A stretch of 64,000 nt of DNA from Octopus sinensis (lineage: Eukaryota). Location: NCBI RefSeq assembly GCF_006345805.1, contig NC_042997.1, forward strand, positions 47,926,001 to 47,990,000. The letters run 5' to 3'. Position 1 is the stretch's first letter, and the number at the start of each line of letters is the position of its first letter. Of the stretch, positions 8,211 to 61,869 are shown piece by piece. The position numbers and the translations under genes are program-made. The notes under the pieces are model-generated. The model was not told the DNA's origin, did no database searches, and saw only the letters and a program-made list of their open reading frames with translations.

Positions 8211-8246
8211 CTTTCTGTAGAAGAGCTTAGGCTAGAAACGTAAAAT
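8211..8246 (+). ncRNA. Degenerate minimal hammerhead ribozyme in a short Penelope-terminal-like repeat (~8150-8340)
   Basis: cttt-CTGTAGA-a-gagc ttag gcta-GAAA-cg-TA-aaat. Core has A6->T and stem II has a closing mismatch. Confidence 0.5.
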
Positions 8247-8349
8247 ACTTTTTCTATTCCTGAGCGTTATACTAATACATTTGTTTGTTTTGTACACCAC
8301 CTGTCTTCGTCTTTTGTTTTTTTTCGTAAGCTCTCCCTATATATATATA

Positions 8350-11300
8350 TGTAGTGTAAACAATTTTAGCGGTTATAATAATCGACTAAGGGACAAAATA
8401 TCCATATATACTATCGGTATCCGTTACCCGTGTTATCCCTGAGCACTGGTGTTCAGGCATACTATGCACGTAGCGTGCCGGCAACAAAAGGATAAACAAG
8501 AGTTTATCAGGAACCAATGAAAATAATCAGAAAATAGAGAAAACCCCAGATTAACAAGCTCACAGATTGGACCGCATTTATAGCTTATTTTTAATACAAA
8601 GCATGTCATAACAAATAGATGACGTAACATATCTTACGGCCGTTGCCGATCCGTTGCCAAAATGCTGTCTGTAAATAAATGCGAGAATAAAGTTCTTCAT
8701 CTTCATAGGACATTCGAATTAAGGTACGGAGCTTCATCAGAGTAAAAAACAAGACCATACAATATAAACAAAGGGGGAAAAGGAAAAGGAAAGAAAACAA
8801 AGCCTAGAAACAAGTCTAGAAGCCCAATATGTTAAAAGCATATAATCTACCATCTAGGGGCTACGAGGTTCGTAGGTAAAGAATGAGCTAGTAATGGTCT
8901 ACGGAATACTACAATTTGTAACAGGTAATTGCAATTTAAAGGATGGAGGCAGAATGTTTAAAAAATGTTATCAATGAAATATATATAAGGAAAATACTAA
9001 CATGATTATCAAAGGGCGATACCTATGCTAACGAGGTAAACTCTAGTAACTGCTTAAGAAAATTTATCACAGAAATTATTACCGAGAATCCCACCTATGT
9101 TCCAGCGGTCTCTACAATTGGTCAGGTACAATTTAAACCGAGGTCACAGGTTAAAACCTTTCCAATGGATTTGTCAATAAAATATACAAGAAAAGAAAAA
9201 AGTTCCGGAGTAGAAATCAATGATATAGGTGGTGTGGGGTCGCTTATGTCCTTCAGCATATTAATGTTATAACATGCATGAGGGAACAATGAAAAGAGAA
9301 AGGATCCACGGGTTGCGGTTATGGTAATTCCGCGATTCAATTAACGCTACGAGGAATTGAAATTGGACTAAACGCCATATATAGCGAATTGTGGTAATAA
9401 TTAGATATACAGGTGCGCAAGAAAGATCCACCTTATAGGTACACTACAATGCACGAATAAAAAATCACTTACAATTAAGCGGTTTATATTTAAGGCCAAA
9501 TCACATGTTGATAATTATCAAATAATGAAATACCCTAGTTGCCACAATATACTAAATATGCTTAATACGCAGTACATAGTCATTAAAGTTATATAGTTCC
9601 TATTACTGTAAAACAATTTACAAGAGTATATTGGCACTATATGAGTACAGTTAATACCGGGTCCGCTGGAAAATTAGTACTATGAGAAAAGTTACCTTAA
9701 TTGAAACAATTTACTAAACATACTTAAAAGCAATAAGAAATACCCTATGATAAGAATGAAATGCTAATCAAATCTGAACATTAAAAATTATAAACAAAGT
9801 TATAATAACTCAAAGTTGTTGCAAAAAATACTATTACAATCAATAGGTTGTGCTTATATCACATTACCCTCAAATTAGATTATTCTTATCCAAAAATCTA
9901 ATAATTTTAAATTATAATCAAATAATTAAGTGGGTGCAGCGATACAATTTCAATCAACGGGCAACACTTACCATTCTACATAGTACAACAGATTTATACA
10001 AATATCTTCTGGTAAGCCCAACTAACATAGTTCCACAAACAAACAGACACATACAATGCAAGGTGGGGGACGGTGGACATAGAGTATAATAAAATAAAGA
10101 AAAAGTAGCATATAATGAAAAATAAAATGAAAAAGTTCAATAAATCAAACATAGGGCAAATATTGTTCGCAAACATGTAGGGCTAATGACGTACATTAAA
10201 ATGGGGGAAAGGTAATGGGTGGAGGAAAGAATATCTAGTTAGTAGCGAAATAAGTCCAAATTCCAGCAAGGGCCGACAAATAATACATCCATGGGGTAAA
10301 AGGTGCTAGAGGGTAAAGAAAGCAAAAAAGATAGGAAAAGCTAAAATTGAAATTTGAATAAGATTTAGCATTTGAAGTAGTTATTAGGGGTAAAAGACTA
10401 TATGGTAGAAAACCTAAGGTCTTTGTGTTCTCGGATCAGTTTTAGTAGAAATAATAGGCATTAATACAAGGGGTTAGGGGATGATAATATTGGGAAAACG
10501 CTAATTGGTATAAGAAATAGATAACAGATATGGGTGGAGGGGATCATTTAAAACTTAGGAAAAGGGTAAGAGGACGGGTTAATTATTTGAATATCTACAA
10601 TAGTCTCAGTTATTCCTTACAAAACCAAATATAAATTAAGAAGTAAGATGCATAACTTACGTTATACTATCAAGGGCTACTATTATGGGGTAGTATAAGT
10701 ATTTCTAGTGTTATTTACATTTATCGAAAGTAGACCTCTCTTTGTGCAGGCAAGCTGCACTTTGCTCATCTCTCAAGTTCACTAGCGGATTGCATGCTGT
10801 TAGAATGTAAAAAAAATCGTTAATGCAAAGATAACATTTCCTTTTACTTTTATTATACGAAGTTGCAGTAACGAGGATCTCTAAATTTACTGTGAAACTA
10901 GTGTTACTATCTTTCAGCTCCCAAATCTACCTACTTAAACCTGTCGAATTAAGTTTCTATTTCTAAAATAATATTGGTACGTGGCTAGTCTTCATTTTGG
11001 GTTGCTCTAACGTAACTCATTTTGGTTGACTGTGTTATGACTGTACATTGGTAAATAACATCCTTAACTCTACAGCTGTTACCAAAGGCATAATTATTCC
11101 TGTTCCTACAGTTACATAAGTTATGCTGTGAGTGGGAAGTTGCTACCTAGTGGAGTAGGATTAGGTCTATTCACGTTAAATTGGTTATTTTCAGTTCTCA
11201 GAGTATTCTGTACTAAGGTTAGGGTAGTGTTTACTGTTATTGTTACTACTAATACCGCCGCCGATGCTATTTTTGTTTCTATTTGAGTAGAAAGCATCTA

Positions 11301-11905
11301 TTTTTTTCATTATTCAGGGTGGATATTATGCTTCCTAAATTATGTGTACTACTATTTATAAGTTTAGAATACCTATTATTCTTATCAAAATGCCCATTAA
11401 CAACTTTCAGTAATTGCTTAGCTATTTTAGTCCTTCTTTGCATTGCAAAAGAGATTATAAACCACATCTTATCTCCCGATTTTCCAGTAGATTCTTCGTG
11501 GATGGTGTGCTTATTGATATTATTTTTCCCGCGTCCATTGTCCCTCGTAGTTCTACCTAGTATGTCACTATTGTTTTCGTAGTTATTCATACAGTTACTA
11601 AATCTTGTCTTATTAGTATCATTTGCTGCTACTGCTGCTATCTGTGTATTTTTACAATGCTTGGGTGTATGACCATGCGCAATAATGTTGCGGTTAGCAT
11701 ATTCGCCATTACTACTGTCCATTTCACGCTCGTGTGGGAAATATTTAATTCGTTTTCCATACTCCGCCTCCATAAGTGTCTTATCGTATATATCCTTATG
11801 ACAATTAAATATGCCATCATTAGCTAAGAGATAGGAAATCCTTTTGCTAATGCCTCTAATTACTGATTATGGATGGTTACTTTGATAGTTTATATTCAGG
11901 TTCTA
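8350..11905 (-). mobile_element. 5'-truncated, decayed Penelope-like retroelement (RT thumb, CxCx5Cx5C-like zinc finger, GIY-YIG endonuclease, ~2.4 kb putative 3' UTR), probably Naiad clade
   Basis: Minus-strand translations: NINYQSNHP*SVIRGISKRIS (~11890-11830); WFIISF...KIAKQLLKVVNGHF (ORF 11279-11773); CNC-RNRNN-Y-AFGNS-C-RVKDVIYQC...SYVRAT (11116-11000); STGLSR*IWELKD...KCYLC...CLHKER, with stop near 10711. Both ends lie near (TA)n. Confidence 0.85.
8630..8744 (-). ncRNA. Degenerate hammerhead ribozyme near the 3' end of the Penelope-like element
   Basis: Minus strand: ct-CTGATGA-a-gctccgt...long loop...acggatc-g-GCAA-cggccg-TA-ag. Palindromic stem III ACGGCCGT; GAAA is mutated to GCAA. 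Confidence 0.6.
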
Positions 11906-12121
11906 TTTGCTAAGAATCCACCCTTTTAATATCTATGTATGTATATATATATATATATATATATATATATATAATTAAAAATGAGGGTGTCTAAAAGACA
12001 CCAACATGCCGAAATAGCAGTCGAAATTCTGACTATAAAACCACGTGCACACTTGCACACACACATATATGTATACATACACATGCACAACGCACACATA
12101 TACATATGTACGTAATATATT

Positions 12122-60699: not shown

Positions 60700-60975
60700 C
60701 TGCTGAGATCCCCTACGGTCATGGGCTGACCATGGGATTGAACCTAGAAAATTACCCTCCCAGGCACAAGTCCGGGCAAGGTTGTTTATGGAAGACCAGC
60801 AGTCGTCCATGCATACCGGCCTCCCTTCCGCGCCGTCGCAACTCATTTCTACAGCTGAGTGAACAGGGGCAGCGTAAAAAAAAGTATCTTGCTCAAGAAC
60901 ACAACACACAGCCCGGTCCAGGATTCGAACTTACGATCGTAAGCCCGACACTCTAACCACTAAGCCATGTGCCAT
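60700..60975 (-). mobile_element. tRNA-derived SINE (family B)
   Basis: Reverse-complement homolog of 14420-14745. Confidence 0.85.
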
Positions 60976-61317
60976 CACTATTCACATATTGATATCTAAT
61001 TATATATGTGTGCGTATGTCTTTTTATATATATGAGCGTGTGTGTGTGTACGCGCGTGCGTGTTGTTTGTATGCGCAAAAGATAAGATCGAAGGACCGAG
61101 GTGTAGGAAAATAGTAGGCTTCGAGCAGCCCGTAGGGGTTATAAAATACAACTTTCAGAAACAATAGTGGTTTTGACGTAGAAAGTTGTGAATGTTTCCC
61201 GTATCGAAGTTCGATAAGCTGAAAAGAAGCTATTTTATCGTTTACGGTTAGCAGCAGGGGTTGCTGTGTATGCGAATAGAAATACAAAATTAGAAATCCA
61301 TGTAAATATATATATAT

Positions 61318-61714
61318 ACTCTTTTACTCTTTTACTTGTTTCAGTCATTTGACTGCGGCCATGCTGGAGCACCGCCTTTAGTCGAGCAAATCGACCCCGG
61401 GACTTATTCTTTGTAACACGAGTACTTATTCTATCGGTCTCTTTTTGCCGAACCGCTAAGTGACGGGGACGTAAACACACCAGCATCGGTTGTCAAGCAA
61501 TGCTAGGGGGACAAACACAGACACACAAACTCACACACACATACATATATACGACAGACTTCTTTCAGTTTCCGTCTACCAAATCCACTCACAAGGCATT
61601 GGTCGGCTCGGGGCTATAGCAGAAGACACTTGCCCAAGATGCCACGCAGTGGGACTGAAACCGGAACCCTGTGGCTGGTTAGCAAGCTACTTACCACACA
61701 GCCACTCCTGCGCC
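61318..61714 (-). mobile_element. SINE family C, full length
   Basis: Minus strand ggcgcaggagtggctgtgtggtaag head, internal (TG)n and a tail ending tgactgaaacaagtaaaagag. Confidence 0.9.
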
Positions 61715-61869
61715 TTTATATATATAAACAATTGCAGCGTGGAAGGTGTTTATAAGCCATTTAAGAAACACACAAAACCGTTCACTTCAACATTTAAATT
61801 TAATTTGTCAAAATATTTTCGTCGCTTTGAGACCGCGACCTACTTTTATCTTTATCTTTTCTCTCACTC

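Follow-up and report, generated by a model that had tools for sequence, protein, structure and literature searches.

Candidate hammerhead ribozymes with altered cores in likely Penelope-like repeats of Octopus sinensis

A 64,000-nucleotide stretch of the Octopus sinensis genome (contig NC_042997.1, positions 47,926,001-47,990,000, hereafter the window; GC content ~35%, microsatellite-rich; assembly size 2.72 Gb) had been predicted from its letters alone to hold a dispersed set of minimal hammerhead ribozymes with palindromic stem III sequences. Following up this prediction, we came to a reading that we hold with somewhat more than even confidence: the motifs are type-I hammerheads in decayed 3′ fragments of Penelope-like elements (PLEs), or of repeats likely derived from them, from 12 families, and in several of the largest families fixed changes in the catalytic core (A6U, U4C and a G3:C8 pair, in the standard hammerhead numbering) likely leave cleavage slow and dependent on dimerisation or on protein. 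Attenuated, dimer- or protein-dependent ribozymes that would still cut and still be under selection are our best reading of the data.

All 13 predicted motifs were located at their positions, and each has relatives elsewhere in the assembly with a hammerhead layout, by which the 13 sites were grouped into 12 repeat families (A to K and M). The three half motifs (26395, 60662 and 61839, all on the minus strand) are 5′-truncated copies whose longer relatives bear the lost CUGAUGA-type half. The count of about 10 complete motifs in the original prediction was too generous: the copy at 34306 (+) alone passed a strict descriptor, the one at 15051 (+) has G at the cleavage site where 12 of 14 family A copies have A, and the remaining copies are broken at core or stem positions, including stem II. 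Intact copies of families A, B, C, D, E, G, H and M pass a type-I layout descriptor (stem I-core-stem II-GAAA-stem III-UH-stem I). Exact-pattern searches of the whole genome returned 15,523 (E), 10,020 (H) and 5,171 (M) matches and none for reversed-pattern controls. Families found by DNA search were represented by the best ~40 of 111 (A), 995 (B), 1021 (C), 2854 (D), 298 (G), 675 (I) and 126 (J) candidates, and F and K are known from three fetched loci each, two of those of F overlapping one genomic place. A view of the family J motif at 26395 as unsupported was dropped, relatives having been found by DNA search.

Structured descriptors matched both the window and random genomic sequence more often than shuffled controls. 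A descriptor comprising stem I, stem II, palindromic stem III and core gave 1, 2, 4, 3 and 4 window matches at five settings, against means of 0, 0, 0.05, 0.2 and 0.55 over 20 shuffles. When stem I was left out, an exact core gave 3 window matches against ~0.2 in shuffles, and allowing one core mismatch gave 8 against shuffle means of 4.1-4.9, which is not clearly above chance. Random genome, sampled as 100 stretches of 10 kb (999,600 bases), yielded 31 matches to a descriptor that left the 3:8 pair and either position 4 or position 6 open, with H17 unconstrained; eight shuffles yielded 0, 0, 0, 1, 0, 0, 1 and 0. A homology library, not complete and weighted towards the families of the window, detected 85 copies in 100 random 10-kb stretches; this figure is a lower bound and extrapolates to ~230,000 hammerhead copies genome-wide. 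The predicted spacing of one motif per 5-6 kb holds for the window, whose density (13 per 64 kb) is about twice that of random genome, but not genome-wide, where at least ~1 per 12 kb was found in random 1.0 Mb. Clustering of 192 distinct descriptor matches from ~2 Mb of fetched sequence gave 29 clusters, 15 of them with at least two members. Rfam returned no window match at or above its gathering score; at E≤1, microsatellite matches to microRNA models dominated, with no hammerhead among the best 150 of 218.

Sorted by core, the 31 random-genome matches comprise 11 canonical motifs (six of them from one tandem locus), 13 with U6, 4 with C4, 2 with U3:A8 and 1 with G3:C8, so that 20 are non-canonical. 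Families A, B, C, D, F, G, I, J and K have a canonical CUGANGA (or U3:A8) core; E has U6 instead, M has G3:C8 and most of H has C4. In family E, U occupies position 6 in 14,955 of the 15,523 exact matches; among the first 100 listed of the other 568, about 25 have A and most have C, a pattern expected from post-insertion mutation. N7 takes all four bases in this family and, like H17, tracks subfamily. Among the first 100 family H matches listed, 68 have C4 and 32 U4 (counted by eye), and a C-to-T change at N7 was seen in only 3 of 100, so U4 is a subfamily state rather than CpG decay. The first 100 family M matches listed include 96 with G3:C8. C4 cores occur in other families too, some beside PLE open reading frames (ORFs), and across families the 3:8 pair covaries among C:G, U:A and G:C. 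Position 17 is not G in any of the 31 random-genome matches, nor by majority in 28 of the 29 clusters.

Several further core variants were encountered. U4C was seen in at least three families unrelated to H (L217; L233-L235; the L058/L084 family; L226:9397; L232:1803), some with an extra G before GAAA. A second candidate U6 family (L222:8043) was dropped, its relatives having A6, and four C6 descriptor matches lacking the G10.1-C11.1 pair were not counted as hammerheads. Contigs from public sequencing runs that cover the hammerhead showed no variant at position 6, yet none at the variable N7 either, and are uninformative on U6 in other organisms. We found no natural A6U in the literature and G3:C8 only as a laboratory mutant; Lunse 2017, Przybilski & Hammann 2007 and supplement file 1 and the figures of PMC4209133 may already list natural cases of both.

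Copies picked by a core pattern are biased towards that core; those found by their tails alone are free of this bias. In family E, 42 of 45 tail-found copies span the motif, and the majority fraction is 0.954 in the core against 0.834 in the tail (p=0.004), with U6 in 38 of the 42 and N7 divided as T18/A12/C8/G4. In family H, 21 of 25 span it (core 0.938, tail 0.864, p=0.0009), position 4 being U11/C9/A1. A comparison of six E subfamilies chosen by hand (47 of the 89 copies aligned) shows differences in 66 of 149 flank columns but in none of the 29 core and stem columns; of the 7 free columns, 2 vary (N7 and H17). At the stem I pair 2.4:1.4, family E has C:G and family H mostly G:C. The excess of core over tail conservation in E and H speaks against the proposal, which we consider improbable, that the variant cores are dead relics hitch-hiking beside the reverse transcription start site and unselected since they mutated; so do at least four changes of N7 while 13 core and 16 stem positions stayed, and summed contig depth from four public runs, with a peak at the hammerhead ~2-9-fold above the flanking level (higher still in one small run).

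Some results count on the side of the relics and against continued selection. Family M shows no excess core conservation in its small sample (9 of 11 tail-found copies kept, truncated ones included; core 0.88, tail 0.884, p=0.59), with G3 in 5 of 9 and C8 in 7 of 9. The core-versus-tail comparison is inflated by low-complexity sequence and indels, and the E subfamily table is biased, many of its copies having been chosen by a core-covering pattern. U6 invariance is not significant in itself and lies within neutral expectation, as the six subfamilies agree in 56% of flank columns as well. A U at 1.2 leaves a mismatch in stem I of one C4 subfamily of H, and stem I of family J is poor; both look like decay. 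On balance, the alignments indicate that the hammerhead motif is still constrained after A6U, though not necessarily through selection on U itself, and the avoidance of G at 17 together with a free N7 would be the pattern of a catalytic motif.

The claim that many independent Penelope- or retrozyme-like families seeded this genome stands in its Penelope part and is weak in its retrozyme part. Three families (E, H and F) are tied to PLE coding sequence: E and H run back into Neptune-type reverse transcriptase (RT) and GIY-YIG sequence, the motif at 8744 ends a Hydra-like PLE, and hammerheads lie in the pseudo-long terminal repeats (pLTRs) of a young intact PLE (L224). L132 and L152, two copies of family E that share 94% identity across 1.2 kb, are both preceded by GIY-YIG coding sequence with a CX4CxxC linker. 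Together with L368, L132 makes up a near-complete PLE with DKG, YIDD and GIY-YIG motifs and some frameshifts, in which the U6 hammerhead and (TA)n follow 847 nt beyond the coding motifs; L369 and L236 provide the equivalent RT/GIY-YIG linkage for a C4 copy of family H. By motif comparison, this set fits Neptune/Nematis-type PLEs. The Pfam scan missed the PLE ORFs, GIY-YIG in L132 scoring just under the cutoff (E=3e-4). A window ORF used as query gave 145 assembly matches, including near-intact ORFs of 860-910 codons. At L224, an 899-aa ORF with RW and DKT motifs is flanked by 99% identical 582-bp repeats (the pLTRs), each with an identical CUGAAGA...ACACGUGU hammerhead ~70 nt ahead of (TA)n; judged by motif, it would match the Hydra-clade description given in PMC8557442. 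Relatives of this Hydra-like type align with window positions 8338 to 11895, so the 8744 motif lies at the end of a truncated PLE copy. L221-L231 and L240 belong to a young Hydra-like PLE family, probably recently active, with ORFs of up to ~900 codons and 99% identical repeats.

The other nine families (A, B, C, D, G, I, J, K and M) are likely PLE-derived, as their architecture suggests. A pLTR or partial tandem, an inverted 5′-truncated copy, a tail and a microsatellite target were found for A, D, G and M as well as for the intact elements. Families A-D, M and G have 3′ ends fixed at microsatellites, inverted truncated copies and partial tandems; these hallmarks, seen where no ORF is visible, include an upstream inverted copy in 16 of 25 family M loci, two 3′ ends in the same family (the long one at 12 loci, the short one at 13), copies on both strands at 7 of 24 family D loci and partial tandems in family A. 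It weighs against a PLE origin that no ORF link was found for any of the nine; in families A-D, the 3-kb loci with a tblastn hit (3 of 30 for A, 1 of 30 for B and none of 25 for either C or D) are close to the background of 5 of 60 larger random stretches.

Retrozyme-type tandems with a hammerhead per unit were found outside the window only, as one 535-bp tandem (L330) and a few dimers; the window holds no hammerhead tandem array. L330:2615-5580 has four identical 535-bp units in tandem and two inverted, each with a canonical hammerhead (stem III ACAATTGT), and looks young and retrozyme-like. Copies of family D (window 15363-15925; L102:1745-1817) often start with a 73-nt head containing A-box- and B-box-like words, followed by (AAT)n and the hammerhead unit. 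The head is present in 16 of 24 D loci and absent from the window pair, and the D unit follows 24 of 34 intact heads; head and unit together look like a tRNA-type short interspersed element mobilised by a PLE, although the tRNA-like head was not called by ARAGORN or Rfam.

The palindromes had been proposed to serve as a family-specific dimerisation key. This does not fit their distribution: ACGT is common to E, H and D, ACAGCTGT to at least four families (J and at least three others), and family B subfamilies differ, with ACCTAGGT, ACCATGGT and 9-nt forms. The palindrome is imperfect in family G, where ACGACCGT is commonest and the perfect form is only incidental to the window copy, and in some B subfamilies. 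The TA/AT switch in family B preserves the palindrome, which supports selection for self-complementarity over family identity. By prediction, two copies are needed for stem III to form; the calculated monomer hairpin is unfavourable for 13 of 14 scorable palindromes (ACGU being too short to score), and homoduplexes are favourable for all 15, at -0.2 to -14 kcal/mol. Forced heteroduplexes are weaker than matched duplexes, so discrimination between palindromes is possible in energy terms.

That energy difference would suit a further explanation, namely that dimerisation, protein or Mn2+ rescues the variant cores to full activity in their natural setting and that the families move via cleaved and re-ligated circles like retrozymes, the palindrome restricting pairing to kin. 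Rescue of A6C by Mn2+ (PMC7151607), the circle model proposed in PMC4209133, the ~550-bp unit of family A with its partial tandems and the L330 tandem point the same way. However, E and H end coding elements of 3-6 kb rather than short circles, palindromes are common to unrelated families and vary within B, and no cut-site reads were found for the Anolis PLE (PMC11167929). We regard full activity with circular intermediates as highly improbable.

The 5′ ends of copies are not piled up at the scissile bond: starts within 3 nt of it number 1 of 41 for the E model, 0 of 37 for the H model (the two models cross-match, so their counts overlap), 0 of 8 for M and 0 of 15 for D, families G and I standing outside this comparison. 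Because copies do not end there, uncut RNA is the likely template. On the attenuated-ribozyme reading, transcription through a partial tandem would produce RNA with two identical hammerheads, and the PLE protein would nick AT-rich microsatellite DNA. With its start point fixed 60-300 nt downstream of the ribozyme, reverse transcription would then copy RNA that is for the most part uncut, so that even short 5′-truncated copies would retain the whole motif. Occasional cleavage, when two copies pair via the palindrome and probably with the aid of protein, may process multimeric transcripts. We propose that a weakened core is tolerated or favoured because fast cleavage would destroy the template.

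The missing pile-up at the cut site is also what would be seen if the U6 and C4 motifs no longer cut and persisted as a folded scaffold for protein binding or dimerisation in the PLE ribonucleoprotein (RNP), an explanation that we rate unlikely but worth serious attention. It agrees with conservation of the motif even after the core change, with the low activity of CUGA mutants other than the G:C swap (PMC9901934), with insertion in vitro being unimpaired by catalytic mutants (PMC11167929) and with Naiad PLEs that thrive without canonical hammerheads (PMC8557442). The behaviour of position 17, which shifts among A, U and C by subfamily and avoids G, and of the free N7 is instead that of a catalytic motif, and the natural A6C and U4C cores described in PMC3088659 and PMC7151607 retain low or in vivo activity.

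Much of the general picture has precedent. According to Cervera & de la Peña 2014 (PMC4209133), minimal hammerheads occur in PLE pLTRs, with many families per genome, palindromic stem III, opposite-strand pairs, a U3:A8 variant and low dimer activity; as many palindromic-stem-III families per genome were already published there, the original prediction was mostly known. The motifs described here share with those metazoan PLE hammerheads the type-I topology, an extra nucleotide between A9 and G10.1, the G10.1-C11.1 pair, the palindromic stem III, numerous families in one genome, solo copies for the most part, inverted pairs 100-700 bp apart and the U3:A8 variant. They differ in that several families have stem II regions of 50-100 nt, in that the portion of the published alignment compared has only CUGANGA or UUGANAA cores where 18 of our 31 random matches have U6, C4 or G3:C8, and in copy number, ~230,000 by extrapolation here against 2,000-9,000 in its examples, though by different methods. 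Craig et al. 2021 (PMC8557442) describe canonical hammerheads as universal in Neptune/Nematis-type and Hydra-clade PLEs, unlike the non-canonical ones of E and H, whose clade is assigned by motif.

Frangieh et al. 2024 (PMC11167929) report that the hammerhead of the Anolis Poseidon PLE PAc cleaves only with protein and is dispensable for insertion in vitro, that uncut RNA is the main substrate, that catalytic mutants insert normally and that C3G/G8C partly restores cleavage. Our families resemble PAc in the likely uncut RNA template, two RT start sites giving the tail and AT-rich targets; they differ in that PAc has a C3:G8 core overlapping the start codon and G3:C8 as a laboratory mutant, whereas G3:C8 is natural in family M (at least 5,171 copies). 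A deep scan (PMC9901934) found low activity for all CUGA mutants save the G:C swap. Natural A6C in phage Bcep176 (PMC3088659, PMC7151607) and U4C in a viroid (PMC3088659) change the same CUGA positions with low but real activity. Those are rare single cases in tertiary-stabilised ribozymes, and A6U was not encountered among those described there; the variants here have become fixed across thousands of mobile copies. Metazoan non-LTR retrozymes (LTR, long terminal repeat; PMC7229834; bioRxiv 10.64898/2026.07.22.740005) likewise combine type-I hammerheads with short repeats and are likely PLE-mobilised, and L330 and family A are similar to them; in contrast, the window motifs are not tandem, and E, H and F are ends of coding elements. 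Further sources used are PMC6765202, PMC6155905, PMC3884650, PMC12192606, PMC8490949, PMC11014351 and PMC13282606. To the known picture the octopus sequence would add that fixed non-canonical cores, A6U above all, dominate in PLE lineages with coding sequence.

Within the window, the family E hammerhead at 8211-8246 (+) has the A6U core (CUG-U-N-GA), stem III ACGT and, in this copy, A in place of C11.1; the 3′ fragment (~180 bp) of a Neptune-type PLE (+) in which it lies runs as far as ~8338, ending in (TA)n. A 5′-truncated and broken Hydra-like PLE copy occupies 8338-11895 (-), with RT thumb and endonuclease remnants at 11893-10714 followed by a 3′ untranslated region carrying, near its 3′ end, the family F hammerhead (8632-8743, -; long stem II, stem III ACGGCCGT, GAAA decayed to GCAA). 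The two PLE copies join their 3′ ends at one (TA)n tract, and microsatellite targets are often common to different families. The ~550-bp family A unit (14759-15369, +), with 63-bp terminal redundancy, contains a hammerhead at 15051-15112 with stem III ATTGCAAT and G17. Family D forms an inverted pair flanking a (TTA)n tract, one arm at 15417-15462 (-) with stem III ACTT where the family has ACGT, the other at 15832-15871 (+) being 5′-truncated and decayed (U4 to A). The family C hammerhead (20317-20359, +; stem III AATCGATT) has an intact core and a broken stem II, and that of family G (20943-21044, +) has a 74-nt stem II region, decayed A9 and C11.1, and stem III ACGGCCGT.

The family J half motif (26381-26398, -), which lost its CUGAUGA half by 5′ truncation, belongs to a family with weak stem I and with stem III ACAGCTGT in 7 of 16 relatives. 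At 31263-31297 (+) lies the hammerhead of family H, the sister of E, with stem III ACGT, a broken stem II and U4 in a family that is mostly U4C; a family H model tail without hammerhead was found at 40522-40578 (-). The family B hammerhead (34306-34375, +), the sole window copy satisfying the strict descriptor, has stem III ACCTAGGT and C17, and that of family I (49694-49772, +) has a partly broken stem II and stem III ACTGATTGGT (family ACYGATTGGT). The half motifs of families K (60649-60667, -) and M (61806-61841, -) have stem III ACCGGT and AATATT, respectively; all three relatives of K seen have a U3:A8 core, and full copies of M have a G3:C8-swapped core (GUGAACA) with a stem I of at least 6 bp. 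Apart from the hammerheads, the window holds a Pif1-helicase fragment with an adjoining ORF piece (23280-24094, -; Pfam PF05970, E=1e-32), probably a Helitron remnant, and two inverted 210-bp repeats (21428-21637 and 53554-53763), 93% alike and 32 kb apart, that probably represent two copies of a single dispersed repeat. The ORF pieces at 1289-2825 and 25171-25482, which gave no Pfam match, we take by eye to resemble RT of non-LTR retrotransposons.

The role of PLE hammerheads is puzzling: they cleave poorly, in vitro insertion can proceed without one of them, and they are absent from some PLE clades. Here, sister lineages combine one scaffold and one RT family with A6/U4, U6 or C4 cores, which makes them a natural test of whether the elements need cleavage, slow cleavage or no more than the fold. 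About two thirds of the intact-looking motifs here (20 of 31) would escape descriptor-based censuses. Tentatively, and with rather less than even confidence, we suggest that the most successful Penelope lineage of this genome has relied, through a long succession of subfamilies, on a hammerhead with U at the otherwise invariant position 6, which would be either a new natural core variant that works when rescued by protein, dimerisation or metal or a non-cutting RNP scaffold, that the parallel U4C changes in several other families may reflect repeated selection for weakened self-cleavage, and that most hammerheads may be invisible to standard descriptors.

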